From contig JBHLNF010000001.1 in NCBI GenBank assembly GCA_048937405.1, positions 192,001-256,000 of the forward strand: a stretch of 64,000 nucleotides of DNA, given 5' to 3'. The notes under the pieces were generated by a model. The model was not told where the DNA came from. It saw only the letters and a list, made by a program, of their open reading frames with translations, and did no database searches. Below, in pieces: positions 6,906-22,895 of this stretch (its first letter is position 1; the number at the start of each line of letters is the position of its first letter). The translations under genes and the position numbers were made by a program. Origin of the DNA: Promethearchaeota archaeon (lineage in GTDB: Archaea; Asgardarchaeota; Lokiarchaeia; Sigyniarchaeales; SOKP01).

Positions 6906-6930
6906 TAAAGTTTAAAATCAAGTGAAAAAA

Positions 6931-7524
6931 ATGTCAAGTAAAACAAGATCGAAAATATCATCGGCTCTTTCAAAAGAATTTGAAGAAAAATGGAAAAATC
7001 CAATGAAAAAACCATATTTAGAAAAGCTAGTTTTAAATATAGGGGTTGGAGTTGGAGGGGAAGAGTTAGAGAAAGCTGTTAATGTTTTAGAAACAATTAC
7101 AGACCAAAAAGCAATTAAGACTACATCAAAAAAAAATGTGAAAGAATTTAATTTAAGAATAGGACGACCCATTGGTACGAAAGTAACTATTAGGGGTCAA
7201 GCTGCTGAGAAATTACTTAAAAGATTACTAATTGTTAATAATAATAAAATATTAAGAAAAAGTTTTGATAATTATGGTAATTTTGGTTTTGGAATAACCG
7301 AGCACATTTCTATTCCCGGTATTGAATATGATAATGCAATTGGGATATGGGGTTTGGATTGTGTAGGAAGAGTAGTTAGACCCGGAATGAGAGTAAAATC
7401 TAGACGAAAAGCTCGGACTAAAGTTCCAAAACATCATTATGTCTCACGACAAGAAACCCAATATTTTTTAGAACAAAATTTTGGAGTTGAAATTGTAGAA
7501 AAATTAGAATTAGAATATTTTTAA
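6931..7524 (+). CDS. rpl5: 50S ribosomal protein uL5
   Basis: NPMKKPYLEKLVLNIGVG, GNFGFGITEHI; ATG at 6931 preferred over GTG at 6922. Confidence 0.97.
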   Translation: MSSKTRSKISSALSKEFEEKWKNPMKKPYLEKLVLNIGVGVGGEELEKAVNVLETITDQKAIKTTSKKNVKEFNLRIGRPIGTKVTIRGQAAEKLLKRLLIVNNNKILRKSFDNYGNFGFGITEHISIPGIEYDNAIGIWGLDCVGRVVRPGMRVKSRRKARTKVPKHHYVSRQETQYFLEQNFGVEIVEKLELEYF

Positions 7525-7693: not shown

Positions 7694-7713
7694 TAATTAG
7701 AATAAAAAAAAGT

Positions 7714-7869
7714 GTGAATATCTATGACAAATACCATAGCAGATGCTTGTTGTGCCCTTAAAAATGCAGAAAGAGCACGTAAAAAGGAAGTTATTATTAG
7801 CCCTGCTTCTAAGGTTCTTCAACAAATTCTTCGAATATTCCAAAGACAAGCATATATTGGAGAATTCGA
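7714..7869 (+). repeat. Direct repeat copy 1 (rps8 SD plus 5' end), attL-like
   Basis: Matches 22740-22895; 3 mismatches in 146 coding nt (ACA/CCA, CTT/CTC, GGA/GGC) plus 2 in the spacer. Confidence 0.95.
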
Positions 7870-7885
7870 AGTCTGTTTATTATAA
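7724..7885 (+). pseudogene. rps8: Truncated 5' copy of rps8 (49 native codons plus VCLL-stop); left junction of the island
   Basis: MTNTIADACCALKNAERARKKEVIISPASKVLQQILRIFQRQAYIGEFE, then diverges into island sequence. Confidence 0.93.
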
Positions 7886-8245
7886 ATATTTTAAAACTAA
7901 ATTTCTAAACTCCTGTACTTTTATAGGTTTTGATATATATTGATTAAAACCAGATGACATAATACGTTCCTTATCTCCTTTCATTGCAAAAGAAGTTACA
8001 GCAATTATTGGTATATCTTTGAATTTTTCGATTTTTCTTAAATTTGAACAAATTTCTGTACCGTTCATTTCTGGTAATTGAATGTCTAGAATAATTAAAT
8101 CTGGATTACCTGATTTGATTAATTCAAATCCTAAATCACCTCTAGTTTCTTCAAAAATTTCAATATCGGGTATTAAATTTAAAATTGCTTTAAATAGCTT
8201 CATATTTTTTTCATTATCCTCAATAACATACACACTTTTTTTCAT
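7880..8245 (-). CDS. Single-domain response regulator (CheY/DivK-like receiver)
   Basis: IEDN, LIILDIQLPEMNG, AVTS, YISKP. Confidence 0.93.
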   Translation of the reverse strand: MKKSVYVIEDNEKNMKLFKAILNLIPDIEIFEETRGDLGFELIKSGNPDLIILDIQLPEMNGTEICSNLRKIEKFKDIPIIAVTSFAMKGDKERIMSSGFNQYISKPIKVQEFRNLVLKYL

Positions 8246-8401
8246 AAATCATTACCTACTTTTTTATTGAAACATAAAGAGAATTACGTGAATAATTCTT
8301 TTAAGGAAATTTTCACCTATGACTTCTAGATAAATCATTTTAGCTAAGATATATAAATTTTTAGAAATCTAAAATTGAAATAGAAGAATTGCAAATTGAT
8401 T

Positions 8402-9949
8402 TTAAGGACAAAATTTTAATTTTAGTTCTTGAGCTATATTAGCCATTTTATTTAGTTCTTCATAATCTTTTTCAATTATTGATTTCATGATATCAACCTT
8501 TAACTTTTTAATTTTTTCAAGAGTAATAGAAAATTCTTTATTAATATCCTCATATAATTTGTCTATGTTGCTATAAAGAAGTTGAGCTTGATTTTTATCA
8601 ATAATCTCAGAATTAATTATCTTTCTTTGATAAAAAGTATTTAATTCTTCTAACCAATTCCTTCCAATTTCTCCTATTGGTAGTAGATCATCGATTTTTC
8701 CTGTATTTAGCCCCATTTCAAATTTATCCTTATATTCATCGAATAAATTCCTGAAATAATTGTTAATTTTATTTTCAATGGCTTCTAAGTTAATATTAGG
8801 ATTCATAAAAAGAGTTACAGTATAATTATTATAACTAAAAATATGCATTTTTAAATTACTTCCTCTCAAACCAAAACCGGTTAAATCCTGAATATTTAGT
8901 TCCAAAGAAAATTTCTCCAACGCACTTATAAACATTGGAATCAATTCAAGATCAATTGGAATTATACTATCATCATTTGGAACACTTTGAGAAATATAAT
9001 CTTTAATAGCATTATCATATAATTCAAAATTTAATAACGATAATCCATCTTTATCTGATATTATTGCTCCTATGATCCCTGAATTTTTTTCTTCAGTCGG
9101 AATTTCTAATAAAGGAAAATTTCTCTCATCTTTATCATTTGAGACGGAGAAAAAATTCTCCAAAACTTTTTTGTATATTACCTTACCTTTATTCGTTAAA
9201 CTTAGAAGTGATTCATTTTTTACCTCTTTTACTTCAATATGACCTTTATTAATTAAATTTTCAACTAAATAATTTACCAATTTCTCAGGACGATTCAATT
9301 TTTCATAAAGAATATCTTTAGCAATAATTACATTTTTATCAATTTGATGTATGATTTTCAATGATTCATCAACCATATTCAATAATAATCCTTCATTAGG
9401 TAAGACATCTTGAAGGCAAGTTTTCATAATTTCAATGAAATATGAAAAAGTCTGATGAAAGTATTCCTTTTTCAAACTGGTAAATCGAAAATTTATTAGA
9501 GTATCATTTGAGAAACTATTCTTAATTATCGATCTAATTTCTCTGATTTTCTTTTCACTTACCAAATCTATTTTATGTAATAATACAAAAATAAAGGTGG
9601 ATGGAGTAAGATCATTTCTTAAATCAATAACTTTTCTTACAAAATTAATGATCTCATCATTATTAGATTTAATGTCAATTACTACCAATATTAGTTTAGT
9701 GTCATAAAAAATTCTTTTTTCATCTGTTTCAAGCCATCGTTTATTTTCTTGACCAGCTAGATCAAATATACCAATATCTTCATTTAAACCTGGTAATCGC
9801 AATATTAATGATTCTTCTCCATATGTTGGGTCTAAAGCATATTCTAGTAACTTAGATGAACTTTCTCCTTCAAAAAAGACTTTACGAAGGGTTGTTTTCC
9901 CAGCATTTGGTGGTCCTACAAATATAATTTTTTTTCCTATTTTGATCAC
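8402..9949 (-). CDS. Rag/Gtr-like GTPase fused to winged-helix and C-terminal roadblock/longin-like domain
   Basis: GPPNAGKT, PTYG, DLAGQ, HKID, FTSL; LVENLINKGHI...LSLTNKG wHTH; IIGAIISDKDGLSLL...FISALEKFS. Confidence 0.75.
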   Translation of the reverse strand: MIKIGKKIIFVGPPNAGKTTLRKVFFEGESSSKLLEYALDPTYGEESLILRLPGLNEDIGIFDLAGQENKRWLETDEKRIFYDTKLILVVIDIKSNNDEIINFVRKVIDLRNDLTPSTFIFVLLHKIDLVSEKKIREIRSIIKNSFSNDTLINFRFTSLKKEYFHQTFSYFIEIMKTCLQDVLPNEGLLLNMVDESLKIIHQIDKNVIIAKDILYEKLNRPEKLVNYLVENLINKGHIEVKEVKNESLLSLTNKGKVIYKKVLENFFSVSNDKDERNFPLLEIPTEEKNSGIIGAIISDKDGLSLLNFELYDNAIKDYISQSVPNDDSIIPIDLELIPMFISALEKFSLELNIQDLTGFGLRGSNLKMHIFSYNNYTVTLFMNPNINLEAIENKINNYFRNLFDEYKDKFEMGLNTGKIDDLLPIGEIGRNWLEELNTFYQRKIINSEIIDKNQAQLLYSNIDKLYEDINKEFSITLEKIKKLKVDIMKSIIEKDYEELNKMANIAQELKLKFCP

Positions 9950-11260
9950 TTAAATTTTTTTATTGAAGTAATATATATTTTTTAATTTTTGTTTGATTTG
10001 ACCAATTGTCCAAATTAATTTATTTGCACTAAGAGTTTCTGAAAAACAAACTAAATTTTTAAGATTAAATTTTTGATAATTCAAACTGTTCATAATAATA
10101 TTCAAATTAGAACTTGAGAGAATTAAATGTTCAATTCTATCATTTTTAGATACATTTTCGAAAGTTTTATTTAATTGGGTTATAAGTTTATGCGAATGAT
10201 TGATAATTATCGTGTTAAAATCTTTCGTAATAGATTGTGCTACTATACTATCATTTAAATTAGTAATAAAAAACATAGTTTTTGAAAAATTTGATATCAT
10301 ACTATCCAACAGGTTCTTTAAGTGAAAAGTATATTTTGAAAAATTGCTTAATAATTCATAAAATGCATTATAAAGGCTATAAATTAAATTTGGATAAATA
10401 CTTGTATAATAAATAGACACATCAAATTTCATTTTTAAAATGTTTGTAAGGTCTTTAAGATACTCTTTTCTAGATCCTTTCTCTATTAAATCAATTTTAT
10501 GGATGAAAAGAATTAGTTGAGCAGTATAGGAGTTATCTTGTAAAATTTCAATGACTTGTTTGATATCCTCCATGATTAATTGTTCATTTGTAATCCATGT
10601 TGGATAATCAAAGAGATATACTATAAAGTCAGTATTCTCAAATGCTAGAATTTGGTCATTATTTTTATTATTTTCCAGAAGTTGACTGAGTTCTTGTCCA
10701 GAAGAATCAAATAAACCTACCTTCAAATCTAACCATGAATAAACTGATGGCGATATTCCTCGAGTCGGTTCTAAAGGATTTGTTATTAAATTTATTGGAT
10801 CATATCCTTCAAAGACAATTTTCTTAATAGTTGTTTTTCCTGTACCTGGTCTACCAATTATCAATATCTTTTTAGCTGAAGACTTAATAAAAAAAGTATC
10901 AATTTTCTCTTGGAAATATTTTTTTTTATCATCTTCAGATTTTCCTAAGAATTTTCTGGCAAATTTAATAAATTCAGATTTTTGATTATATAAATTAATC
11001 TTTTCTTTTTCTTCCAGTATAATAAGAATTATTTCATATCCAATCTCAGAAACTTTTGATTTATCACAATAACTAAGTATAATATTATCTTTATATGTAA
11101 TTTCAATTAACTCACCCTTCTTAAAATCATCTTCATAGGAATGAGTCATATATATTTTATTGATTAATTCATCCGTTAGTTTTAATTCTAAAGGATATTT
11201 CAGCTCAAGCGTAGCACCCATTTTAGTATCCCAACTAAAAAACGCTAAACCTTTAACCAT
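9950..11260 (-). CDS. Longin/uDENN-like N-terminus plus Rag/Gtr-like GTPase plus roadblock-like C-terminus
   Basis: FSWDTKMGATLELKYP; GRPGTGKT, PTRG, DSSGQ, HKID, YTSI. Confidence 0.75.
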   Translation of the reverse strand: MVKGLAFFSWDTKMGATLELKYPLELKLTDELINKIYMTHSYEDDFKKGELIEITYKDNIILSYCDKSKVSEIGYEIILIILEEKEKINLYNQKSEFIKFARKFLGKSEDDKKKYFQEKIDTFFIKSSAKKILIIGRPGTGKTTIKKIVFEGYDPINLITNPLEPTRGISPSVYSWLDLKVGLFDSSGQELSQLLENNKNNDQILAFENTDFIVYLFDYPTWITNEQLIMEDIKQVIEILQDNSYTAQLILFIHKIDLIEKGSRKEYLKDLTNILKMKFDVSIYYTSIYPNLIYSLYNAFYELLSNFSKYTFHLKNLLDSMISNFSKTMFFITNLNDSIVAQSITKDFNTIIINHSHKLITQLNKTFENVSKNDRIEHLILSSSNLNIIMNSLNYQKFNLKNLVCFSETLSANKLIWTIGQIKQKLKNIYYFNKKI

Positions 11261-11266
11261 TAAATC

Positions 11267-13411
11267 TCAACTCTCTATTTTTTCTTTTAATTTTTTAGTT
11301 ATAGTAAAAGTAAATGTTGATCCTGTACCTAATACGCTATTAAATGTTATACTTCCTCCATGTAATTCTACAAGCCTTTTGGTTAATGATAATCCAAGTC
11401 CGGTCCCAGGAACAGAGCGTACATATGTAGAATCTACTCTTTTAAATTCCTTGAAGATCAGAGAAAAATCTTTTTGATCTATTCCAATACCTGTATCATT
11501 TACTTTAAAAACCCATTGACCATATTTTTCTTGTATTTTTACTGTAATTTGACCTTCAAGAGTAAATTTAATAGCATTACTTAAGAGATTCAATAAAATT
11601 TCTTTGAATCGAATTGGATCTGCATAAATATATTTTTTTTCATCTAATCCTTTAATCTTTAATTTAAGGTTCTTTCTATTATACATAGGCTTTAAGCTTG
11701 ATTTAATTTGTTCAAATATGTTATTTAATGAAACCTTTTGAATATTCAAGTTTATTTGTCCAGATTCTATTTTTGATATATCTAAAATATGTTTAATCAT
11801 ATCAAATTGATGTTCTGCAGAATTTTTTATATCGGTAACAAATTCCTTTTGTTCATCATTTATTTGACCATAAACACCCTCTAATAATAAATCAGAAAAT
11901 CCAATAATAGCATTTAAAGGAGTCCTTAATTCATGTGACATTGTAGCCATGAATTCTGTTTTAAACTGAGAAGACTTTACTATTTGATCCATGTATAATT
12001 TCTGCTGTTCAAGGGTTTTATTTAACTCTTTAGTTCTATCCTGAACTTTTTGTTCTAATTCATCTTTAAATTTCTCTTCTAAAAGTTCTGAGGTCTTTTT
12101 TTCAGTAATATCTTTAAAAATCAGTTGAAATAGAGTTCCAGGCTTCTGTTTTATAATAGAAGCTTGAATTTCAACCCAAATACTTTCTCCATCCTGTTTT
12201 TTTAACTCAACCTCAACAGGTTTTGGAAAATTATTTTCAAAATTGGCATGAAAAATTTTCTTAAAATAAAGCTTAACTTCAAAAGGAAAGAAGTTGATAA
12301 GCTCATCTATTGATTTTTGAATAAAATAATCCCTTTCATAACCAAATATTTTGTCTGTAGTAAAATTAGCATCAACAACAATTCCATTAAAGTTTATTAT
12401 TAATATGGCATTTGGTGAGTTATCAAATAAATCTTTGTATCTTTTTTCAACAAAAATTTGATCAGTTATATCCCTCGAAATAACAAGAATTCTCACTTGC
12501 CCATCTTTATTTATAAAATTTTTAAAATTACATTCATGCCATAGCCAATGGCCCTCTTTATGTTTAATTCGCAATTTTATAGTACTTTTTTCACTTTTTA
12601 ATGGATCTTTTAATAATTTTGATATCTTTCCTTTATCTTTTGGATGAAGAAAATCCAGATATGATTTTTCCAATATCTCTTTCTTTTTGTATCCTAGCAG
12701 TTTAAATGCTATTTTTTCATTAAAATATTTAACTATTAATTTCAAACTAAGAATTATGATTAAATCATTTATATTTTCTTCAATGCGAATATGTTTCTCT
12801 TCTGATTCTTTCAACATTTTTTTTATTATATAATGTTCTATACCATTTCCAATAATTTGTGAAGATAATCGTAAAATTGATAACTGTGTCTCATTCGACT
12901 CTTTATGTATTGAATCATTTAAATATCCAATAAATCCTGCTAAGTCTTTTCTAATATATAGTGGAAACACCAATAGAGATCTGATATTATTAAGATTTAA
13001 TAACCTTTTTGTAGCTTTTGCTTCATCAGTTAAACTAGAAATATCATAAATATTGATAATTTTTCCTTTTCTAAGTTGATTATTCCACCATGGAAATTTT
13101 AAAAGCCATGAATTGTTAAAGTATTCAAATAACGGTTTAATTCCTTTTGCACACCATTCATACGTATTTTTTAAATTAATCTCATTAAAATTAATAATAT
13201 ATAAAACAACCCGACTCGCTTTGTTTAAAAACCCAATATCACGTAATGTAGCATTAATAATATCATTAATCTCGATATCTCCAAAGAATCGAGATGAAAT
13301 TGTTGAAATCAAAGTTTCTAAATCTGACCAAAATTGAACCAGACATTTTACATTTTGTTTTACATCATTTTTTTCTCCAAAAATATTTTCTTTGTTGTGA
13401 ATTCCACTCAT
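11267..13411 (-). CDS. GAF-PAS-PAS sensor histidine kinase
   Basis: NTYEWCAKG (GAF), FLHPKD (PAS), MSHELRTPLNAIIGF, NLLSNAIKFT, DTGIGI, GTGLGL. Confidence 0.95.
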   Translation of the reverse strand: MSGIHNKENIFGEKNDVKQNVKCLVQFWSDLETLISTISSRFFGDIEINDIINATLRDIGFLNKASRVVLYIINFNEINLKNTYEWCAKGIKPLFEYFNNSWLLKFPWWNNQLRKGKIINIYDISSLTDEAKATKRLLNLNNIRSLLVFPLYIRKDLAGFIGYLNDSIHKESNETQLSILRLSSQIIGNGIEHYIIKKMLKESEEKHIRIEENINDLIIILSLKLIVKYFNEKIAFKLLGYKKKEILEKSYLDFLHPKDKGKISKLLKDPLKSEKSTIKLRIKHKEGHWLWHECNFKNFINKDGQVRILVISRDITDQIFVEKRYKDLFDNSPNAILIINFNGIVVDANFTTDKIFGYERDYFIQKSIDELINFFPFEVKLYFKKIFHANFENNFPKPVEVELKKQDGESIWVEIQASIIKQKPGTLFQLIFKDITEKKTSELLEEKFKDELEQKVQDRTKELNKTLEQQKLYMDQIVKSSQFKTEFMATMSHELRTPLNAIIGFSDLLLEGVYGQINDEQKEFVTDIKNSAEHQFDMIKHILDISKIESGQINLNIQKVSLNNIFEQIKSSLKPMYNRKNLKLKIKGLDEKKYIYADPIRFKEILLNLLSNAIKFTLEGQITVKIQEKYGQWVFKVNDTGIGIDQKDFSLIFKEFKRVDSTYVRSVPGTGLGLSLTKRLVELHGGSITFNSVLGTGSTFTFTITKKLKEKIES

Positions 13412-13476
13412 AATTTAACTTTAATTTAATCTATCTTATACATTTTTGATACAAATAATATCTATTCAATAAAAGA

Positions 13477-14166
13477 TCATTCACAATGATCTTTGGGAAA
13501 TTGTTCTTCAAGAGCTTTCATAATATCGTTGCAAGAATCCAAGATCATGTTAATGTAATTCATAATCTCAGGTCTAGATATTTTTCTATTTATATTTTGA
13601 TCTATTATTAACTCACCAAATCCTCGAATTGTGTTAATTCCACTCCGAATCTGCATATTTATGGATTCTAAAGGTAGGATTTCATCTTTTTGCATATAAA
13701 TCTTATTTATTTCTTTAATAAAATTCTCAAATTCATTTTTATCATCAGACAAAATTTTATTACGTTTAATTTTATGAAAAATCATTCCAATTTTTTTGAA
13801 ATGAAGTATTGGTATTATAGAATAGCCAACATCCCGAAGTAGTATTATAGCATATAATTGTTTTCCTCCCCTTGCTGATAAATCCTCTATTTCGATCTTA
13901 TAGATTTGGGCATAAAAATTATTAAAATCTAATATAACAAATTGATTTTTAGTATTTAGCGCGTCTCTTAAAAGATTTTTTACAAATTCTTCATTTTTCA
14001 GAGGAATTTGAGAATATAGGGCTCTTGGACCTAATGTATGATCATATTTTCCAATAATCATAATAAAAGGATATTTTTCTAAATTATGCTTAAGAGTTGA
14101 ATAAATATCAAGATTTTCCTCTTCACGTTTATTTTTAAATTGGATATCTTTTATAATTTCTTTCAT
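13477..14166 (-). CDS. Longin/uDENN-like domain fused to a degenerate (His-less) HisKA-like helical hairpin
   Basis: GKYDHTLGPRALYSQIP and ARGG..YAIILL; C-terminal NMQIRSGINTIRGFGELI aligns with SHELRTPLNAIIGFSDLL. Confidence 0.6.
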   Translation of the reverse strand: MKEIIKDIQFKNKREEENLDIYSTLKHNLEKYPFIMIIGKYDHTLGPRALYSQIPLKNEEFVKNLLRDALNTKNQFVILDFNNFYAQIYKIEIEDLSARGGKQLYAIILLRDVGYSIIPILHFKKIGMIFHKIKRNKILSDDKNEFENFIKEINKIYMQKDEILPLESINMQIRSGINTIRGFGELIIDQNINRKISRPEIMNYINMILDSCNDIMKALEEQFPKDHCE

Positions 14167-14375
14167 TTTTTTTCCATGTAAATTAAATGATATATACTAA
14201 ATCTTAAGAATAAAAAAATCCTTATTGAAAGAAGTTTTTTATCCTTAGAATGATTTCTAAATTAATTGGAAAAGAATTGATATTTAATCTTTACTATTTA
14301 ATAAAGTGTATGAGTTATTAGGAAAAAAAAGAAATTTTTGTACAAATTTATATAATAGAAGCATATTAATAATTT

Positions 14376-15860
14376 ATGTCGGAATCCGCAAATACTATTA
14401 TAAAATATTTCTGCGATCGCTTTTTAGATATTGAATACTATCCTTCTAATTTGAAGGCAATTTTGGATTTTGATTTGCATAAAATAAAAAATATTAAAAA
14501 AGAAGATTTGCTGAAATTCCAGAAATTTAATATAAAAACCTTTCGAGATCTATGTAATTTAGATCAATCTGATTATGATCGGTTGATAAATCATTCATTT
14601 ATAGAAAAAAATCTACTAAATAATATTATTATTGCAGCAACTTTAATTGCTAATTCATGGAATAAAAGAAGTATTTACTTGAATAAACCAAAAATGAAAG
14701 TTGTTGTGGCTGGTCTTGATTTTGCAGGTAAAACATCTTTAATTAATAGATTGATTCACGATTATAACTACAATGATATGAATAATATTGAGCCAACAAT
14801 AGGGACAAATATAGAAGAATATCACTCAAAATGGCTGAATTTAATATTATGGGACTTAGGTGGCCAAAAGGATAATATAAATGAATATTTAGAATCTCCA
14901 GAAAAATTTTTTGTACAATTAGATGTTTTAATTTTTGTCATTGATGCCCAAGATGATAATAGATATAATGAAGCGGTTCGTTATTTGAATGATTTAATTG
15001 AAATATTTACATTTTTAAATGAAAATCCATATATCCTTGTATTGATAAATAAAGTAGATTCTGATATAGCAGAGGATCCAGATTTTCAAATTAAACTTGA
15101 ATATTTAATGGATAAAATAACTAATATCTTTATTAATAGTCAAAAATCATGGAATTTTGAGCTCATACCTACAAGTATCTATAATTTTTATTCTTCAGAA
15201 CCCGAGATTGCTAAAAGCATTAAAAAAATCTTTACAAAAGAAAAATCAGAAACACATTTGGATACTATAACGGAAATTAATGAGAAATTAGAAAGAATTT
15301 TAAATATAAACCTAGAATTAATGGATAAAATAGTATCTGATTTTTCCAAAATAAAACAAACCTTATTTAGATTTACACACTCTAATGTTTCTCAATCACT
15401 ATTTAACATTCCAATTCAGGATGTTCCCTGCAAGAATAGTTTTGATAAACAAAAAACAAATCAGAAAGATAGGACAAAGAAAAAAGAATCGAAAAAAAAA
15501 GAATTAAAAAAGAGAGAAAGAATAAAAAAAGTTATAGGTCCCCCGAAACGTTTAGAATCTATTATATCACCAAATGAAATTACACAAAATATAAAAAATA
15601 ATCATAAAATTACTGAAGAAAAATTGAAAGAAATAAAAAACGATTTAACCCCAACTCCTAAATCGTCTGATTTACGATCAACCCCACCAATAGCTCCTAA
15701 AAAAGGTTATTTAAGTAAAGCTGATCTTAAACCTCCACCCCCGCCACCAAAAATTGCAATTAAAAATGATACTTCATTACAAGGGAATAGAAAACAAATT
15801 ATTTCAGAATTAAAGGAATTATTTATAAGAAGAGGGTTAGTCCCTCATAAAAATATTTAA
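14376..15860 (+). CDS. Arf-like GTPase with N-terminal helical (HhH-like) domain and C-terminal Lys/Pro-rich tail
   Basis: GLDFAGKT, PTIG, WDLGGQ, NKVD; PPPPPP followed by RKQIISELKELF. Confidence 0.8.
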   Translation: MSESANTIIKYFCDRFLDIEYYPSNLKAILDFDLHKIKNIKKEDLLKFQKFNIKTFRDLCNLDQSDYDRLINHSFIEKNLLNNIIIAATLIANSWNKRSIYLNKPKMKVVVAGLDFAGKTSLINRLIHDYNYNDMNNIEPTIGTNIEEYHSKWLNLILWDLGGQKDNINEYLESPEKFFVQLDVLIFVIDAQDDNRYNEAVRYLNDLIEIFTFLNENPYILVLINKVDSDIAEDPDFQIKLEYLMDKITNIFINSQKSWNFELIPTSIYNFYSSEPEIAKSIKKIFTKEKSETHLDTITEINEKLERILNINLELMDKIVSDFSKIKQTLFRFTHSNVSQSLFNIPIQDVPCKNSFDKQKTNQKDRTKKKESKKKELKKRERIKKVIGPPKRLESIISPNEITQNIKNNHKITEEKLKEIKNDLTPTPKSSDLRSTPPIAPKKGYLSKADLKPPPPPPKIAIKNDTSLQGNRKQIISELKELFIRRGLVPHKNI

Positions 15861-16400
15861 TTATCGTTTAGAACAAATGAAAAATATTATAATTCGTATG
15901 AATTGTCTTTTTAATATTCAATTTTATCGGATTATAAAATTTATATTCCGCTCTTTTCCCTAACTTATTAGAATGTGATGTTCTCCATCATATTATTTTA
16001 TTTGTATTTATTTAAAGTGTGTTTTATATTCCAAGATAAAATTTTTTCTTAAGATCTATTTTAAACTTATATCTAAATCAGTTTGAATGAAATAAATCTT
16101 GAAATCATTAAATTAAGGACTTTAGCAAGATAAAAAGATAATTTAATTCAAACTTATCAAATCTTATAATAAAGTGAATTTTTTATCTTTTACTTCTTAT
16201 GATTTCTACTACTATTCACAAATATGGAAGCGAAATATAAAGAATTACTTTAATACCTGTAATAAATCAAGTTTCTAACTAGTAAATTCAACTTTTTTTA
16301 CTAGTAATTTGTGATTTTTTAATGGACTATGCATTTCGAAAAAATTAAAAATATGAAATTTATTGCTTTTATGGAGTAATTAATAGAACATTATTTTATT

Positions 16401-18746
16401 ATGCGGAAAAAAATTCAATCATTAGAAAAATTCAAAATAAAAAATAGACCTTTTAATCATAATATTTTAGAGGTTATAGTAGAAATAAATCTAGATGGAA
16501 AGTTTATTTGTTTTAGTCCACAGGTTTATGATCTTTTCGGTTTTCGACCAAAAAAGTTAATCAAGCTAAATGAACAAAATTTCATCCATCCAGAAGATTT
16601 ATCACTTTATAGAGAAGTAATTGATAAGGTAAAAAACTTTAAAGAAACATTTATTGTAGATTTAAGAGTGAAGCACAATAAGGGATATTATGTCCCAATT
16701 TCATTAAAGGTTAATTTAATCTTACCTAATAATACAAAAAAAATAATTGGTATAATAAGAGATATTTCAGATATCAAAATTTCCAAGTTAAAATTTAAAG
16801 AATCTAAAGAGAAATATCTAAACATTATCAATAATATGATGGAAGGATATTTTGAAATTGATCTTAAGGGAAATTTTTTATATGCTAATGTGTATTTCTG
16901 TAAAACATTAAATTATTCTAAGGAAGAATTAATAGGAAAAAATTATCATTTTATTTATGAAAAAAAGACATGCGAACGTTTATTTAATATATTCACCCAA
17001 ATATATAAGACAGGGATACCTCATCCTCCAGAAGAAGTAATTAAAGTGGTAACAAATAAGGGTAAACTATTATATGTTGAAGGATCTATTCATTTATTAT
17101 ATGATTCTGAAGGATATAAGGTTGGATTTTATGGCTTAGCTCATGATACAACAAAAGAGATAAAAAACAATCAAAAATTAAAAGAATTCGAATTGAAATA
17201 TAGCAATATTCTCGAAAATATGATGGAAGGGTATTATGAAACTGATCTTAGGGGAAATTTTATATATGTTAATGCTGAGTATTGCAAAATTTTGGGATAT
17301 TCAAAAAAAGAATTATTAGGAAAGGATTATAGAACCTTTTATAATGTAGAGGGATTGAGTAATTTACAGAGTATTTTTACCAAAATATATAAAACTGGGA
17401 TACCTCACGCTCCAACAGGATTAGTAAAATTGGTGACAAAGAAAGGTAAACTTATATATTTTGAAGGTCCTGTTGATTTAATATATAGTTCGAAAGGAAA
17501 AAAGATAGGATTTTATGGGCTTATTCGTGATATAACAAAAAGAAAAATTGCGGAACAAAAATTAAAAGAGTCCGAAGAGAAATATCGAAGCATACTCGAA
17601 AATATGATGGAAGGATATTATGAAGTGGATTTAGAAAACAATATCATTTTTTTTAATGATTCTTTTAATAAGATATTAGGACATCCAAAAGAGAAATTAT
17701 CAAATGAAAAATTTGATTGGTTTTTAAGTTCTCATAGTAAAAAGAGATTTTCCTTACTTTTTAATAATTTATTAGAGAATAAAATGTCATTTTTAATTTC
17801 CCAGTTTGAAATAATAAATCAAAAAGGAGAAATTATAAATGTCGAAACTTCAATATATCAAAAACAAGATATGAAAGGAAATATAATCGGATTCGGAGGA
17901 TTATTGCGGGACATTTCTGAAAGGATGCAAATCGAAGAAATGAGAGAAGAATTTACTGAAGAACTCCAAAATCAAGTAGTTCAAAGAACTCAGGAACTAA
18001 ATGAAGCATTAGAAAAGCAAGAATTATACATTCAAGAGATATTGAAGTCTTCTCGTTTTAAAAGCGAATTTATGTCTGTGATGTCCCATGAGCTGAGGAC
18101 ACCTATGAATGCCATCATAGGTTTTTCTGATCTTTTGATGGAGGGGGATTTTGGTCAACTTAATGAAAATCAAAAAGACTTCTTATATGATATAAAAGGG
18201 TCTGCTAACCACTTACTAAATATAATTAATCATATACTTGATATCTCGAAAATAGAGTCAGGTAATTTGAATTTGAAGATAAAAAAGATTCAACTGGATA
18301 TAGTTATAAAACAAGTCAAAGGAACACTTAAAACTTTATTTGATAATAAGAATTTAACATTTAAGGTGATTGGGTTGAAAAAGAATAAGGTTATCAATGT
18401 AGATCCTATAAGGTTTAAAGAGATTCTTTTCAACCTATTAAGCAACGCAATTAAATTCACCTTAAAAGGAATTATTACTTTGAAAATTTCTGAAGATGAG
18501 ATGCTATGGAAATTTGACGTGATTGATACAGGTATTGGTATAGCTAAGGAAAATTTAGGGTTTATTTTTATGGATTTTAGAAGAATTGATGATCCCCATG
18601 TAAATTCAACAGAAGGAACTGGACTTGGCCTTTCTGTTACAAAAAGACTAGTCGAGCTCCATGGTGGAAGTATCAGTTTTACAAGCGAATTTGGGAAAGG
18701 ATCTACATTTTCCTTTACAATTCCTAAAGATTTAAAAGAAGGGTAA
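16401..18746 (+). CDS. Multi-PAS (4x) sensor histidine kinase
   Basis: FIHPED; three ENMMEGY-type PAS repeats; MSHELRTPMNA, NLLSNAIKFT, GTGLGL. Confidence 0.95.
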   Translation: MRKKIQSLEKFKIKNRPFNHNILEVIVEINLDGKFICFSPQVYDLFGFRPKKLIKLNEQNFIHPEDLSLYREVIDKVKNFKETFIVDLRVKHNKGYYVPISLKVNLILPNNTKKIIGIIRDISDIKISKLKFKESKEKYLNIINNMMEGYFEIDLKGNFLYANVYFCKTLNYSKEELIGKNYHFIYEKKTCERLFNIFTQIYKTGIPHPPEEVIKVVTNKGKLLYVEGSIHLLYDSEGYKVGFYGLAHDTTKEIKNNQKLKEFELKYSNILENMMEGYYETDLRGNFIYVNAEYCKILGYSKKELLGKDYRTFYNVEGLSNLQSIFTKIYKTGIPHAPTGLVKLVTKKGKLIYFEGPVDLIYSSKGKKIGFYGLIRDITKRKIAEQKLKESEEKYRSILENMMEGYYEVDLENNIIFFNDSFNKILGHPKEKLSNEKFDWFLSSHSKKRFSLLFNNLLENKMSFLISQFEIINQKGEIINVETSIYQKQDMKGNIIGFGGLLRDISERMQIEEMREEFTEELQNQVVQRTQELNEALEKQELYIQEILKSSRFKSEFMSVMSHELRTPMNAIIGFSDLLMEGDFGQLNENQKDFLYDIKGSANHLLNIINHILDISKIESGNLNLKIKKIQLDIVIKQVKGTLKTLFDNKNLTFKVIGLKKNKVINVDPIRFKEILFNLLSNAIKFTLKGIITLKISEDEMLWKFDVIDTGIGIAKENLGFIFMDFRRIDDPHVNSTEGTGLGLSVTKRLVELHGGSISFTSEFGKGSTFSFTIPKDLKEG
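16811..17960 (+). repeat. Tandem PAS-domain duplication with 384-bp period
   Basis: gaaatat...aatatgatggaagg recurs at 16811, 17195 and 17579. Confidence 0.75.
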
Positions 18747-18750
18747 AGAT

Positions 18751-19131
18751 TTGATAAAAAAAATATTTATCATTGATGATTATGAGAGAAATTTAAGGTT
18801 ATATAAAGCGACATTTAATGGTGCCCCTAATTTAGATATCATTACGGAGAGAGATGGGATAAAAGGTTTAGAGATGTTAAAAGAGAGTAATCCAGATCTG
18901 ATTATTTTAGACTATAAACTAACAAATATAACTGGTGTTGAGATATGCAAAGAGTTAAGAAAAATAGAAAAATTCAAAGATATTCCAATAATTATGGTTT
19001 CTTCAACCCCTATTGAAAAAGATGTTGATAGAGCAACCTATTTTAAGGAAGCTGGTTTTAATTTATATTTCTCAAAACCAATAAACATTAAAAAATTTAG
19101 AGAAATCATAAAAAATCTATTATTCAAATAA
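18751..19131 (+). CDS. Single-domain response regulator
   Basis: IIDD, LIILDYKL, VSS, FSKP; 4 nt after the histidine kinase. Confidence 0.93.
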   Translation: MIKKIFIIDDYERNLRLYKATFNGAPNLDIITERDGIKGLEMLKESNPDLIILDYKLTNITGVEICKELRKIEKFKDIPIIMVSSTPIEKDVDRATYFKEAGFNLYFSKPINIKKFREIIKNLLFK

Positions 19132-19376
19132 TCATCTAATAAAACAATACTAGATTAAGTAGAACTATACTTTATAGATTTAAGTTTTTATTCCTTTGTT
19201 CTATAATTAGATTTTACTTTATAATTTTTTAAATATTTATTACCATATTATTTCTTTAAATAATTTAAAATTTCTGAGATTTGTAATTATTATGAAAGCT
19301 CTAATTAGATATGAATAATCTAACTGGTGGATTCTTTCTGTATCATTGTTTAATATTTCGAATTATGACATCTTCA

Positions 19377-20114
19377 TTAGGCAAGAATGTAAGGTTTTTC
19401 GTTTATCTCAGGAATCAAAATTATGAAATTACTACCCTTTTTATAATCCCCTTTCACTTTATCTTCCACCCAGATATAACCATTATATTTCTTTATTAAT
19501 TTTTTAACAAGAGTTAGTCCAAAACCCATTCCATTCAAACATTCTCGGATTTCATACTCTTTTTGAAAAATAGATTTTTTCCTTGCATTGGTAATACCAA
19601 CTCCGTTATCAATAAATTCGATTTTAACAAAAGAAGTATTATTCAGAATTATTTTTGAGACGTTAATTAATATTTGAATATTTGAGTTTTTATTGTGATA
19701 TATTGCATTAAATATAATATTCTCAAATACATTCTGCAATAATTTATCTCCTTGAACATATAATCCATTAAAATATGATTTTCGAATGCTTGAATAGTTG
19801 AAATTAATTTTTATATTATTTTCAGGAAATGATGATTCAATATATTCTATGGATGTCTTTAATAAATGGAGAACATCAATAGGTTGAAGAGAATTGTTAG
19901 AATCATCAAAATTAGTTACATTTTTCACATTTGAAATTATTTGAATTCCCCTCATCACCTGTTTATTTATAATATTCATACAAATTCTCATTTGTTCAGG
20001 TTTGGTTAAAGAAAAAGAGCAAAGTTGTAGAGAAGACTGAATAATATGAAGAATAGTCCCAAAATCATGAATTAAAATATCTCCATATGTATCAAATACA
20101 TTTTTTTTCTCTAT
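19377..20114 (-). CDS. Sensor-less histidine kinase (HisKA-like plus HATPase); extends upstream of the ORF call to an apparent ATA start
   Basis: H-box ILIHDFGTIL lies in frame upstream of 19991; ENIIFNAIYH, DNGVGI, GMGFGL; GGTGA 6 nt before ATA 20114, in-frame TGA further upstream. Confidence 0.8.
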   Translation of the reverse strand: MEKKNVFDTYGDILIHDFGTILHIIQSSLQLCSFSLTKPEQMRICMNIINKQVMRGIQIISNVKNVTNFDDSNNSLQPIDVLHLLKTSIEYIESSFPENNIKINFNYSSIRKSYFNGLYVQGDKLLQNVFENIIFNAIYHNKNSNIQILINVSKIILNNTSFVKIEFIDNGVGITNARKKSIFQKEYEIRECLNGMGFGLTLVKKLIKKYNGYIWVEDKVKGDYKKGSNFIILIPEINEKPYILA

Positions 20115-20328
20115 TGTTTGTCACCAATTATGATGCTAATTATTTTTATTGAATTTTTTTTATCTTTCTTATAAAGATTTAATTGTATTTTATGGTAAAA
20201 TTTGGATTACAATACTATAAAGATTGACATTTCTATAAAAAAACTTATATTTAAATCTTTTTTTTCCAAAAAGGTGTATTACAATAAAGATCATTTAATT
20301 TTTGAAATGAGTTTTTCATCTGTAAATT

Positions 20329-20730
20329 TTAACTTATAATACTATTATTTATTTTAATGTCCTTCCTTTTTAATATTTTTAAAACAGTTTTAAATAATTT
20401 TTCTAAAGAAAATGGTTTATCTAAAAAATATTTTGCTCCTTTGGATAAAGCTTCAATCTTAATTTTATTATCTGCACTAGCAAATATTATTTTTGCTGTA
20501 TTTTCAATCTTTAAGATTTCTTCAAGGATTTGAATACCGTTTTTATTTGGCATTCGATAATCCAAAATTATAATATCAGGTTTTTTATATAAATTCTTGA
20601 ATAATGAAATGGCTTCTTCTCCATCACCTGTTAGACCTAATATCTTATAACCCTTACTTTCTAGAGCCATTTTGTAAAACCTTCTTAATTGGTTATCATC
20701 CTCTGCTATAAAGATTGATGACATATTCAT
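20329..20730 (-). CDS. Single-domain response regulator
   Basis: AEDD, IILDYRMPNKNG, FASA, LDKPF. Confidence 0.93.
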   Translation of the reverse strand: MNMSSIFIAEDDNQLRRFYKMALESKGYKILGLTGDGEEAISLFKNLYKKPDIIILDYRMPNKNGIQILEEILKIENTAKIIFASADNKIKIEALSKGAKYFLDKPFSLEKLFKTVLKILKRKDIKINNSIIS

Positions 20731-22007
20731 TGTACCTCCGGAAGTTTAAGAATAAATTTACTCCCTTTGGTATAATCCTCTGGAATCTTGTTTTCAACCC
20801 AAATTTTAGCATTAAATATATCTAAAATACTTTTGACAAGCGATAATCCTAATCCTAATCCACTAAGGCTTTTATTCATCCCAAAATCCCTAGTAAAAAG
20901 ACTTTGTTTCCTTGAATCGGGAATACCTACTCCATTGTCAATAAACTCGACCTTAAAAAATTTTTTTCCCTCTTCTTGAATGTGAGAGATCTTGATTAAT
21001 ATCTCAACAATTGAATTATCATTATGAATAACAGCATTAAGGAGAATATTTTCAAATATATCAAATATGAATTTATTTGCCACAATGAAAAAATTTTGTA
21101 GCTTGGTTTCAATTAGAATTTTCATTTCCCTTTTCTCTGTCCTTTTTTTGAGGTTATTAATTGCTTCTTCTAATATTTCTTTAAAATCTAGTTTTTCTAA
21201 AAATGTTTCAGATTCTAAAATTATGCTAAATTTTCTAACATTCCTAATTAAGTGTGTTCCCCTGTCAATTTGTTCTTTAATCAATTTTATTGATTCGTTT
21301 TCAGTTAAATCTCCAGTAATTTTTAAGTCTTGTTCAAATAATTCTAAACCCATTAATATGTTTTGAAGAATGTTATTAATATCATGAACGAAAAGATCCT
21401 TATAAAAACATTCTCTATTATACGCTTCTTGATATTTTTCAATAGATTTCTCGAAATTGGATACAGAAAACCATGTTATGAATGCAATAAGTACATAAAT
21501 GTTTAATCCAATAAAATTAGGAAAGAATCCATTGATAAAGCAAATAAGTAAATTGACAAAAATAATGAAAAATGTCATAATAAAACTCATATATGGGGTT
21601 ATTAAAAATCCAGCCATAATAATAGGTAACACAAGCTGAAGAAGAGATCTGCCTAAGACAAGTTCATAGGGAGTATCTGAGAGAAAAATAAGTATAGTTA
21701 CTAGTACTAGAAAAGTGCTAATGGCTAATTTATTAGACAAATAGTTATTTACCAAGAAAATAACAATACCTCCGAAAAAAGCAAATGTGGATAAACCTAA
21801 TATCAAAATTGTCTCTTTATTTCCTCCAATAGGAGATCCAATGATGAAGAAACTAAGATATATTAAAATAATCAAACCATCTGCAGATTCTATTCCAAGA
21901 AGTAAAATATTGAGAACTTTTTTTTTTCTCATTTCCTCTAGATCTTTTTTATGAATCAAAAAAAAATAATTTAGAATTCTCTTTATAAATGAACTCACCA
22001 TTTGCAC
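20727..22007 (-). CDS. Membrane-bound sensor histidine kinase
   Basis: About 6 TM helices; LFVHDINNILQ, ENILLNAVIH, DNGVGI, GLGLGL. Confidence 0.92.
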   Translation of the reverse strand: MQMVSSFIKRILNYFFLIHKKDLEEMRKKKVLNILLLGIESADGLIILIYLSFFIIGSPIGGNKETILILGLSTFAFFGGIVIFLVNNYLSNKLAISTFLVLVTILIFLSDTPYELVLGRSLLQLVLPIIMAGFLITPYMSFIMTFFIIFVNLLICFINGFFPNFIGLNIYVLIAFITWFSVSNFEKSIEKYQEAYNRECFYKDLFVHDINNILQNILMGLELFEQDLKITGDLTENESIKLIKEQIDRGTHLIRNVRKFSIILESETFLEKLDFKEILEEAINNLKKRTEKREMKILIETKLQNFFIVANKFIFDIFENILLNAVIHNDNSIVEILIKISHIQEEGKKFFKVEFIDNGVGIPDSRKQSLFTRDFGMNKSLSGLGLGLSLVKSILDIFNAKIWVENKIPEDYTKGSKFILKLPEVQ

Positions 22008-22739
22008 CCTTAACTAAAAAACAAGAATGATTATAGAATAATAGAATTAATATTTAAATTTAGCCATATTTGTCAGGAATAATTAGCAAACAAATAAATA
22101 CAACTCTTCTCAAATTTCAAGATTGTTATTAATTAACTTATTTCTTCCTATTTTTGTCTAAAAAATAATTTTAGATAATTTATAATAATATCTTCAGTTT
22201 TTAAGCTTTTTAAGAGTAAAGGAAGATTAAATAAGAATCTTGGATTAGTATCAATATATTAGACAAGTTAATAAACATTTTTGGTTATAATAAGAATAGA
22301 AGAGAAATTATATAAAATAAAATTTGAGTTAACATTGGATTTCGCCCTCTATTAACCTTAAAGTAGGTTATTCTCCTCCTCACATTTTAAACTCAAGTTT
22401 TTTCTTCCCTTCTCCTCAAGTTTTAAGATAAGGTTGTTAAGTAGAGATAAATCCTAATATGACTCTTTCAATGTTTAGATCCTTGTTTCTAGGTCAAGCG
22501 CAATCAAATTTTTATTACTGGAAAGAAAAAGCAAAAGAAGATAATTAATTTTTTCTAATTAAATAATTTTTAAGTTTTATGGTTTTATTTTAGATTTCAA
22601 TATCAATTAATAAAATTAAAATTTAATCCATTACTAATTAGAACAATACGGAGTAATGGATGGAAAAAACTAAAATAATAATTCTGGATATTGTTCCTGA
22701 TTTTATTAATTAAAATAAGATAAGAAATTTTAGGAAAGA

Positions 22740-22895
22740 GTGAATAATTATGCCAAATACCATAGCAGATGCTTGTTGTGCCCTCAAAAATGCAGAAAGA
22801 GCACGTAAAAAGGAAGTTATTATTAGCCCTGCTTCTAAGGTTCTTCAACAAATTCTTCGAATATTCCAAAGACAAGCATATATTGGCGAATTCGA
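22740..22895 (+). repeat. Direct repeat copy 2 (rps8 SD plus 5' end), attR-like
   Basis: Near-identical to 7714-7869. Confidence 0.95.

Follow-up and report, generated by a model that had tools for sequence, protein, structure and literature searches.

What could be the task of a small archaeal protein in which a longin domain, of the type that serves in eukaryotic GAPs, is in all likelihood followed by a histidine kinase hairpin without its phospho-acceptor histidine, and whose gene lies among those of a sensor kinase, a receiver and several Rag- and Arf-like GTPases? This question is raised by the gene at 13477..14166 (minus strand) of the window, that is, of the whole stretch of 64,000 nucleotides analysed here. 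Its product is a longin/pseudo-DHp protein of 229 amino acids, hereafter called LonDHp.

In eukaryotes, the longins of FLCN, NPRL2 and SMCR8 supply the arginine finger of Rag and Arf GAP complexes: (i) NPRL2/Npr2, as part of GATOR1/SEACIT, acts on RagA/B-Gtr1; (ii) FLCN, together with FNIP2, acts on RagC/D; and (iii) SMCR8, together with C9orf72, acts on Arf. The idea that NPRL2-like longins can be wired to two-component domains is already published, since such Asgard fusions appear in Fig. 5c of Liu et al. (bioRxiv 10.1101/2020.10.19.343400), and the locus is in this respect less new than an earlier note on this DNA implied. LonDHp fits both these fusions and the FLCN/SMCR8-type longins of PMC12290439, being from the same phylum and of the same general kind as those treated in the relevant sections of the two papers. 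The text of those sections makes no mention of a His-less HisKA hairpin as the sole fusion, of a paired Rag-like GTPase cluster or of candidate GTPase partners, and overlap with examples in the figures or supplementary material is possible. Our literature searches located nothing joining Asgard Rag GTPases with histidine kinases, or on Roadblock-Longin in Lokiarchaeota.

The LonDHp gene and its family

The open reading frame at 13477-14166 (minus strand) is exact, and the strings of interest were located in its translation: GKYDHTLGPRALYSQIP at residues 39-55, ARGG at residues 98-101, NMQIRSGINTIRGFGELI at residues 170-187 and YINMILDSCNDIMKAL at residues 204-219. The string SHELRTPLNAIIGFSDLL is found in the kinase encoded downstream (11267-13411). 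LonDHp is present as a single copy in the source genome (one genomic match). Its 218 homologues (57-96% identity), none of them annotated, all belong to Lokiarchaeia/Promethearchaeota. The family is restricted to Lokiarchaeia, the cultured MK-D1 included, and has a patchy distribution, with members in 52 of the 399 genomes of the phylum.

The AF2 model of LonDHp (pLDDT 77), together with Foldseek, gave both the longin fold and the helical hairpin on which the reading of the earlier note depended. With high confidence, the protein can be assigned two domains: (i) a GAP-type longin; and (ii) a HisKA hairpin devoid of its histidine.

A longin domain akin to those of FLCN, NPRL2 and SMCR8

The longin domain (residues 33-160; 13687..14070, minus strand) was delimited from the AF2 model and its structural matches. 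In the model, it consists of strands 35-42, 46-52, 76-80, 84-94 and 102-112 and helices 60-70, 120-131 and 143-159, and the beta-beta-alpha-beta-beta-beta-alpha topology over residues 35-131 is that of the longin fold. The top VIA-align match, which spans the whole domain, is NPRL2 (8fw5_B; Z 13.4, 134 residues aligned, rmsd 2.9), followed by Npr2 (8adl_S, Z 12.6), a Loki longin (8yqg_B, Z 12.2) and 6nzd_H, a chain of the FLCN-FNIP2 complex (Z 11.7); generic longins (VAMP7, Sec22, AP sigma subunits) come lower, at Z 9-10. Likewise, the best Foldseek matches to the model are GATOR1, SEA and FLCN entries, and the structural neighbours of a separate ESM Atlas model are NPRL2, SMCR8, C9orf72 and a Heimdall Folliculin-like cluster. 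The name uDENN is the one used in PROSITE for the same fold as that of FLCN/NPRL2/SMCR8-type longins.

At the sequence level, the sole Pfam match of LonDHp is Folliculin (PF11704), with an E-value of 0.0015 and 18.8 bits, under the cut-off of 23.3. The same profile is matched by 17 of 23 family members (E up to 1; best 3.8e-5), and every unrelated Pfam family matches just one of the 23. Profile searches against PDB sequences, carried out with the whole family and with the longin only, returned no FLCN or NPRL2; the CheY, dopachrome isomerase and proteasome subunit matches that they did return were set aside as noise. In hhalign, the longin profile aligned with residues 1-79 of NPRL2 (sequence checked against 6ces_N) over only 16 columns around the GP motif (P 0.11).

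By fold, motifs and profile matches, the N-terminal domain is a longin of the FLCN/NPRL2/SMCR8 class. The earlier note had recognised longin/uDENN- and FLCN/SMCR8-like motifs in the N-terminal part, and the fold, the GP motif and the conserved arginine agree with it. Because HisKA-like helices alone come after the longin, LonDHp contains a homologous domain and is no orthologue of full-length FLCN, SMCR8 or NPRL2.

The GP motif and a candidate arginine finger

The GP motif, Y41-D42-x3-G46-P47 (14026..14046, minus strand), bridges the last residues of strand 1 and the first ones of strand 2. Within it, D42 and G46 never vary, and conservation is at least 90% at Y41, L45 and P47, even when members of only 20-30% identity are included. 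Strand 2 begins at residue 46, so the position of the GP pair fits the definition given in PMC12290439. The motif is in register with G20-P21 of NPRL2, in an alignment that is by itself non-significant.

The candidate arginine finger is Arg99 (codon AGG; 13870..13872, minus strand), located in the loop that leads from strand 4 to strand 5. The stretch A98-R99-G100 is invariant across 22 core members, and R99 is at least 90% conserved in the wider family, where the only exceptions are P0130 (Glu) and P0133 (Lys). From its loop position and a structural offset of 26, which puts R78 of NPRL2 near residue 104 of the model (an approximate offset, not a residue-level superposition), Arg99 is a candidate equivalent of the catalytic fingers NPRL2 R78, FLCN R164 and SMCR8 R147. 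In the sections of PMC12290439 (Traffic 2025) that deal with these domains, the combination of GP motif and arginine finger is described as specific to GAP longins and as occurring in Asgard longins, of which the paper treats 15, and non-GAP longins as devoid of the GP motif. In the neighbourhood of P0130, where the arginine has been lost, there are kinases and receivers and no GTPase within 6 kb; this single case suggests that the arginine goes with the GTPases.

A HisKA hairpin without its histidine

The C-terminal hairpin (pseudo-DHp; residues 163-222; 13501..13680, minus strand), recognised through hhalign, phmmer and structure, is formed in the AF2 model by helices 165-192 and 198-222. 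When the C-terminal profile was compared by hhalign with a HisKA profile derived from the source genome's own kinases, 59 columns were aligned with a probability of 95.8%, a P-value of 7e-9 and a score of 44.8, versus 10.5 for the reversed profile and 9.2 +/- 1.2 for 40 column shuffles. Furthermore, phmmer ties residues 162-219 of LonDHp to P0141, a protein in which Pfam recognises six HisKA repeats and which thus provides a transitive link of the hairpin to HisKA. In structural terms, the DHp domain of HK853 (5uht_A) matches with Z 8.3 and an rmsd of 2.3 over 65 residues, a value that unrelated helical hairpins also reach (Z ~8).

LonDHp itself has no Pfam HisKA (PF00512) match, and weak ones are found in 5 of the 23 members (best 0.0015). 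A search of LonDHp with an HMM made from 22 HisKA domains of the source genome was also non-significant (domain E 3.7), the HisKA homology being visible in profile-profile comparison only. A BLASTP comparison of the H-box of LonDHp with that of the downstream kinase was equally non-significant (12.7 bits, E 21). The best local BLASTP match between the two proteins (E 7e-4) pairs the GKYDHTLGP region with the H-box region of the kinase and was judged a compositional chance.

In the hhalign columns, the position of the phospho-acceptor histidine of the H-box is occupied by Met171 (ATG; 13654..13656, minus strand). This position holds Leu or Met in the core family, Leu in most relatives and Val in MK-D1; the histidine survives only in four distant members, P0130, P0133, P0145 and P0148. 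The segments Q172-I173-R174-S175-G176 and N178-T179-I180 are invariant in the core family, and the conserved stretch after Met171 forms part of the surface through which kinases contact receivers. There is no HATPase_c domain in LonDHp, whose chain stops 7 residues past the hairpin. As judged from profile comparison, the C-terminal domain is a DHp hairpin minus its phospho-acceptor histidine, and the claim of the earlier note that the C-terminus is a HisKA domain deprived of it was borne out by the controlled profile-profile match and by Met171 at the histidine column. With that histidine lost and the ATPase domain absent, LonDHp cannot autophosphorylate.

Gene cluster and co-occurrence

LonDHp is the first gene of a minus-strand run in which the intergenic gaps are 65, 6, 0 and 156 nt. 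The run continues with: (i) a sensor kinase (11267..13411), located 65 nt downstream of LonDHp, with PAS-PAS-HisKA-HATPase_c architecture according to Pfam and a weak N-terminal GAF match (E 0.15); (ii) Rag436 (9950..11260), a longin-GTPase-roadblock protein of 436 amino acids (Pfam Gtr1_RagA, 2.6e-22); (iii) Rag515 (8402..9949), a second Rag-like GTPase, of 515 amino acids, whose gene abuts that of Rag436 (Gtr1_RagA, 4e-14); and (iv) RR121 (7880..8245), a stand-alone CheY-like receiver of 121 amino acids (Response_reg, 9e-24), which is the last gene. On the other side of LonDHp and on the plus strand lies Arf494 (14376..15860), an Arf/Rag-like GTPase of 494 amino acids (Arf, 7e-24; Gtr1_RagA, 1.3e-22) with a Lys- and Pro-rich tail.

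The nearest PDB sequences are RagA/Gtr1 for Rag436 (AF2 model with pLDDT 80) and Gtr1/Gtr2/RagA for Rag515, and the nearest solved relatives of Arf494 are the Lokiarchaeal GTP-binding proteins 8yl2 and 8zla/9m28. An invariant motif, W10-D11-x3-G15, is found in the N-terminal longin (residues 1-125) of Rag436. Among RR121 orthologues, which are 56-83% identical, E9, D10, D54 and K106 are invariant.

Much of this arrangement is conserved. A kinase (longer than 400 amino acids, on the same strand and at most 4 kb downstream) follows LonDHp in 28 of the 30 loci with enough flanking sequence, and a Rag-like GTPase gene lies directly downstream in 20 of 40. Among 24 wide loci, orthologues of RR121 are found in 16 and those of Rag515 in 11; in 19 of 38 loci, a divergently oriented orthologue of Arf494 lies next to LonDHp. 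Even P0148, which is only 20-26% identical, has a hybrid kinase, a receiver and four Rag-like GTPases encoded around it. In a genome set at the family level, LonDHp occurs together with the orthologue of Rag436 in 40 genomes, one of the two occurs singly in 6 and 3, and both are missing from 85, counts in which kin are non-independent and the two genes are linked.

Elsewhere, the commonest co-operonic GTPase of LonDHp, found in half of the loci, is a protein of ~293 amino acids with a winged helix. Its orthologue is absent from the source genome, where the best matches are Rag515 and Rag436, followed by distant paralogues on contig C28; because of this absence, the true substrate of LonDHp in the source genome is uncertain. 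The role proposed in the earlier note, in which the longin would regulate the Rag-like GTPases while the hairpin pairs with the DHp of the kinase or docks the receiver, fits the conserved cluster and the phyletic co-occurrence.

Prediction of receiver docking

The docking of a receiver, also proposed in the earlier note, obtained a weak pass in complex prediction. Two copies of LonDHp with RR121 were classed as 'weak support', with a score of 0.60 (runs of 0.00, 0.71 and 0.60), one of the three runs and the best of three controls being at 0.00. Among solved complexes, 58 of 80 attain the mark for docking, as do 2 of 110 mismatched pairs; scores of 0.60 or lower are those of only 7 of the 80 solved complexes, plus both of the passing mismatches. 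At least 4% of contacts are shared between the runs, and the partner's pLDDT is no lower than 79. Even with two LonDHp copies, the score covers the receiver only and the interface is not given. Since kinase-receiver complexes have already been solved, the pass may stem from the predictor's knowledge of them. That the hairpin docks the receiver is thus put forward tentatively, from the model.

Proposed function and alternatives

The main reading, for which we estimate a probability of about 0.5, is that LonDHp is a dimeric longin-hairpin protein that regulates the GTPases of the cluster and is itself coupled to the phosphorelay. In this mechanism, the hairpin would dimerise LonDHp in a DHp-like manner and so pair two longins into a platform, which would act on Rag436, Rag515 and/or Arf494. 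The action would most likely be that of a GAP that uses Arg99 beside the Y-D-x3-G-P motif. Through the conserved receiver-facing residues Q172, R174, S175, N178, T179, G182 and F183, the phosphorelay could control or localise this activity, by means of either phosphorylation-dependent docking of RR121 or docking of the kinase itself. As to the parts of this reading, LonDHp is probably a regulator of the cluster GTPases, it has somewhat less than an even chance of being specifically a GAP, and it is a plausible link between the phosphorelay and Rag-like GTPase signalling.

The alternative that survives best, albeit as an unlikely one, makes LonDHp a two-component accessory: the dead hairpin would heterodimerise with the DHp of the kinase and tune its output, and the longin would read the nucleotide state of a GTPase, so that the signal would run from GTPase to phosphorelay. 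DHp heterodimers of this kind are known from RetS-GacS. The hairpin is indeed HisKA-derived and the kinase is the most constant neighbour of LonDHp; nevertheless, an invariant arginine and a GP motif are hard to explain in a pure sensor, and P0130, the single case described above, has lost its arginine where no GTPase is nearby. When the 22 HisKA first helices of the genome were ranked by similarity to that of LonDHp, the neighbouring kinase came first, but by a trivial margin (39, then 38 and 37) that does not discriminate. This one-point margin gives no evidence for a specific origin from the neighbouring kinase or for a shared receiver.

It is less likely still that LonDHp is a non-catalytic longin platform (scaffold or GEF-like), whose hairpin dimer holds Rag436/Rag515 by their roadblock or longin domains in the way of Ragulator or TRAPP, with a structural Arg99. 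According to PMC10933270, most longin platforms, like most dimers of longins and roadblocks, work as GEFs or scaffolds and not as GAPs, which counts against the GAP reading, and the longin and roadblock domains of Rag436 need partners. But the nearest structures are specifically catalytic GAP subunits, non-GAP longins reportedly lack the GP motif, and Arg99 is invariant in the core family.

A bolder version of the main reading is about as speculative. A phosphorelay of bacterial type would gate a Rag GAP directly: docked on the His-less hairpin, phosphorylated RR121 would turn on or off the action of the Arg99 longin on a Rag436/Rag515 heterodimer, with a composite pocket made of the longin of LonDHp and the N-terminal longin of Rag436; this would be an archaeal forerunner of GATOR1/FLCN nutrient signalling. 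In SMCR8-C9orf72, the catalytic pocket is composite, and the W10-D11-x3-G15 motif of Rag436 is spaced exactly like W33-D34...G38, which is essential in C9orf72.

It is improbable that the dead hairpin is a receiver phosphatase or a phosphate sink, which would dephosphorylate or sequester RR121~P while the longin merely targets it to the GTPases. Isolated EnvZ DHp can act in this manner, and LonDHp keeps the surroundings of its H-box (Q at H+1, R at H+3, S at H+4) and has its invariant 172-176 and 178-180 stretches on the receiver-contacting face; the weak pass with RR121, whose interface is not revealed, points the same way. Nevertheless, both the acidic H+1 residue and the histidine of HisKA phosphatase chemistry are replaced.

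Finally, a fortuitous likeness of a generic alpha/beta domain and a coiled-coil hairpin, to which the Z of ~8 of many unrelated hairpins and the sub-threshold matches of LonDHp's own sequence might point, is very unlikely in view of the shuffle and reversal controls, the 17 of 23 Folliculin matches, the Z of 13.4 over the whole domain, the histidine kept in a distant branch and the conserved signalling neighbourhood.

Relation to known systems

Like NPRL2, FLCN and SMCR8, LonDHp combines a longin fold, a GP pair at the start of strand 2, an arginine before strand 5 and recurrent weak Folliculin matches, and its gene lies near those of Rag- and Arf-like GTPases. Sequence identity to the eukaryotic GAP longins is about 10-15%. 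Unlike FLCN and SMCR8, which continue into DENN, and NPRL2, which has its own C-terminal domain, LonDHp has a HisKA-derived hairpin. Moreover, each of the eukaryotic longin GAPs forms a heterodimer in which the other longin is non-catalytic, whereas LonDHp comes without a separate partner longin gene, although Rag436 has its N-terminal longin.

With the DHp domains of HisKA (PF00512) kinases, for instance HK853 (5uht), LonDHp shares a homologous hairpin, a conserved receiver-contacting face and the presence of a kinase and a stand-alone receiver in the cluster. In contrast to histidine kinases, core LonDHp proteins have neither the phospho-acceptor histidine nor HATPase_c, and the longin replaces the sensor and catalytic domains. 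Docking on a His-less DHp is known from a pseudo-kinase, Caulobacter DivL, which has Tyr in place of His and binds DivK~P.

The MglA-MglB(-RomR/RomX) polarity module of Myxococcus (PMC9481161) likewise joins a prokaryotic small GTPase, a GAP of the roadblock/longin superfamily (a role that is proposed for LonDHp) and a receiver-domain protein in one circuit. Unlike LonDHp, MglB is a roadblock homodimer without arginine finger or DHp, and the GTPases of the present cluster are Rag- and Arf-like, not MglA-like.

Significance for Asgard GTPase signalling

The Asgard GAP-type longins are putative GAPs, with dozens of Asgard GTPases as potential targets. Genome layout seldom pairs GTPases with their regulators (Tran et al.; PMC10933270). 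The LonDHp family is an exception, with a conserved cluster that comes and goes along with Rag-like and Arf-like GTPases, kinases and a receiver. The cluster offers a short, defined list of proteins with which to address both GAP activity and the control of Rag-type GTPases by two-component systems, and the family is present in MK-D1. If true, two-component control of a Rag-type switch would bear on the origin of the Rag-GATOR/FLCN branch of eukaryotes.

The gene and its cluster

Within the window, whose GC content is low (25-33%) and whose database matches place it in a Lokiarchaeial (Promethearchaeota) genome, the open reading frame singled out in the earlier note is found at 13477-14166 of the minus strand. 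It encodes 229 residues (hereafter LonDHp), and its translation contains all the strings that had been quoted from it. LonDHp heads a tight, co-directional run of five minus-strand genes, the other members of which are: (i) a PAS-PAS-HisKA-HATPase_c kinase (11267-13411, 65 nt after LonDHp), the N-terminus of which matches GAF weakly (E 0.15); (ii) Rag436, a Rag-like GTPase of 436 aa (9950-11260, 6 nt after the kinase); (iii) Rag515, a Rag-like GTPase of 515 aa (8402-9949, 0 nt after Rag436); and (iv) RR121, a stand-alone receiver (7880-8245, 156 nt after Rag515). Divergently from LonDHp lies Arf494 (14376-15860, plus strand), an Arf/Rag-like GTPase of 494 aa; another PAS kinase and another receiver come after it. 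Arf494 carries a long C-terminal tail rich in Lys and Pro and, among solved structures, is closest to "GTP-binding proteins" of Lokiarchaeal origin (8yl2 and 8zla/9m28), not to eukaryotic Arfs. In the second kinase gene (16401-18746), a 384-nt unit occurs three times in tandem at 16790-17714 (+); the copies align over 157 nt with 67-76% identity and correspond to the repeated PAS modules of this kinase.

The N-terminal longin domain

The N-terminal domain is of the FLCN/SMCR8-type longin kind, as had been suggested. Its AF2 model (pLDDT 77) shows the longin topology (beta-beta-alpha-beta-beta-beta-alpha) across residues 35-131. When this model was searched against all representatives, the highest ranks corresponded to 8fw5_B (Z 13.4; rmsd 2.9 over 134 aligned residues), 8adl_S (Z 12.6), the Lokiarchaeal longin 8yqg_B (Z 12.2) and 6nzd_H, a chain of the FLCN-FNIP2-Rag-Ragulator complex (Z 11.7), while SNARE, adaptor and TRAPP longins did not exceed Z 10. 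Both 8fw5_B and 6ces_N are NPRL2 and 8adl_S is yeast Npr2, that is, catalytic GAP subunits. Foldseek matches point the same way, and the ESM Atlas's own model of LonDHp has as neighbours NPRL2, SMCR8, C9orf72 and a Heimdall cluster partly assigned to PF11704. The sole Pfam match of LonDHp, under the curated cut-off, is Folliculin, which recurs in 17 of 23 family members, every unrelated Pfam family being a singleton.

A 2025 paper in Traffic (PMC12290439) defines a GP motif where strand 2 begins, states that only GAP longins combine it with an arginine finger, and reports both features in Asgard longins. Strand 2 of LonDHp opens with G46-P47, in register with NPRL2 G20-P21 (TLGPK vs TLGPR), and Arg99, located in the loop preceding strand 5, is probably equivalent to NPRL2 R78.

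The C-terminal hairpin

The C-terminus forms a helical hairpin (residues 165-192 and 198-222, AF2), which had been read as a HisKA domain without its histidine; three lines of evidence bear out the link to HisKA. Against a HisKA profile derived from 22 of this genome's kinases, the hairpin profile aligned with Prob 95.8%, P 7e-9 and a score of 44.8 (vs 10.5 for the reversed control and 9.2 +/- 1.2 for 40 column shuffles). By phmmer, residues 162-219 are linked to P0141, a protein made up of six Pfam HisKA repeats. In the H-box His column LonDHp has Met171, whereas core family members have Leu or Met and MK-D1 has Val. Four distant members (P0130, P0133, P0145 and P0148) keep His at the exact H-box position (SHHVR in P0130), which argues for descent of the hairpin from a genuine phospho-acceptor domain. 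Since no family member has an ATPase domain, LonDHp is no kinase and consists instead of a longin domain joined to a dead DHp.

In P0130 and P0133 it is the Arg, not the His, that has been lost, and P0130 is surrounded by kinases and receivers with no GTPase within 6 kb. P0141 (556 aa), whose HisKA-like repeats follow one another in tandem (six stretches, Pfam HisKA 1.6e-37), has Phe in place of His in all H-boxes (SFNLRT, SFKLRT, SFNIRS). P0132 and P0135 bear an additional N-terminal PAS domain.

Family and distribution

The 218 relatives at 57-96% identity are all from Lokiarchaeia and all unannotated (218/218), and only 28 matches emerged when 1.8 billion cluster representatives were searched exhaustively. 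Conservation is very high: among 22 members, 56 columns are invariant, including (i) Y41, D42, L45, G46, P47, A98, R99 and G100 in the N-terminal part; and (ii) Q172-I173-R174-S175-G176, N178-T179-I180 and G182-F183 in the C-terminal part. This genome carries one copy of the gene, and cultured strain MK-D1 has it too (47% identity). Its distribution is patchy, with full-length copies in 52 of 399 genomes of the phylum and in 11 of 53 species in the genus to which the window belongs; outside two GTDB families it is almost absent.

A conserved, possibly mobile neighbourhood

In 48 species-level loci, ORFs were classified by the window's proteins and counted wherever flanks sufficed. A same-strand kinase of more than 400 aa lies within 4 kb downstream of LonDHp in 28/30 loci, and an Arf494 orthologue is adjacent and divergent in 19/38. 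In the wider locus, orthologues of Rag436, Rag515 and RR121 occur in 14, 11 and 16 of 24 loci, respectively. Immediately downstream of LonDHp, 20/40 loci have a Rag-like GTPase of about 293 aa with a C-terminal winged-helix-like segment (e.g., L006:10715-11596, L021:10687-11568 and L029:10672-11550, among others). A search of this genome found no orthologue of this GTPase and, hence, the kinase directly follows LonDHp here. Even the distant relative P0148 (20-26% identity) is accompanied by a hybrid kinase and a receiver, together with four Rag-like GTPases. Across the 134 genomes of the window's taxonomic family, both LonDHp and an orthologue of Rag436 are present in 40, only one of them in 6 and 3, and neither in 85. 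Because related genomes are not independent and the genes themselves are linked, these counts give no P-value; they show that the module comes and goes as one unit.

The cluster looks like a 15-kb insertion, because (i) the whole of it (7880-22007) is flanked by a 161-nt direct repeat (7709-7869 and 22735-22895; 96% identical, 15,026 bp apart); (ii) it sits within a run of ribosomal-protein genes (uL5, 6922-7524; uS8, 22750-23133; the next one, 23156-23734); and (iii) the second repeat copy overlaps the 5' end of uS8. This repeat-flanked arrangement and the patchy distribution within the genus suggest an accessory, possibly mobile module.

Candidate partners and mechanism

Among solved structures, the best matches of Rag436 and Rag515 are RagA/Gtr1. 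The AF2 model of Rag436 (pLDDT 80) comprises a longin (2-122), a GTPase (129-305) and a roadblock domain (309-432), an architecture described for MK-D1 (Tran et al., PMC10933270). In its N-terminal longin (residues 1-125), W10 and G15 are invariant and D11 nearly so, located where strand 1 ends and strand 2 begins. W10-D11...G15 are spaced exactly as LonDHp Y41-D42...G46 and as the essential W33-D34...G38-P39 of C9orf72 (PMC12290439); this shared spacing makes the Rag436 longin a candidate non-catalytic partner for that of LonDHp.

In addition to the established elements (both domain identities, loss of the His, conserved motifs, and a conserved cluster gained and lost together), a mechanism can be proposed. 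The hairpin would dimerise LonDHp, and the longin pair would act on the Rag/Arf-like GTPases of the cluster, the likeliest role being that of a GAP dependent on Arg99. Through its conserved face, the dead hairpin may dock the receiver or the kinase, which would couple this activity to the phosphorelay. Rival readings are a RetS-like kinase modulator, with the longin domain as its input, a non-catalytic platform, and a phosphatase or sink for the receiver.

Regarding docking, complex prediction for two LonDHp copies with RR121 gave "weak support" (median 0.60; runs 0.00, 0.71 and 0.60), the best of three controls being 0.00. While 58 of 80 solved complexes attain the mark, only 2 of 110 mismatched pairs do; scores of 0.60 or less came from only 7 of those 80 complexes, plus both mismatches that passed. 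Between runs, at least 4% of contacts agree, and partner pLDDT is at least 79; the output names no interface. Since kinase-receiver complexes have already been solved, this pass may reflect likeness only.

Significance

Liu et al. (bioRxiv 10.1101/2020.10.19.343400) describe many Asgard proteins in which an NPRL2-like longin is fused to two-component domains, and propose that growth control in these archaea revolves around two-component systems equipped with "eukaryotic" regulators. The portions of literature text covered contained no mention of the histidine-less hairpin architecture, of His retention in a distant branch, or of the conserved GTPase cluster. In practical terms, the LonDHp cluster offers a defined, testable set of regulator and GTPases.
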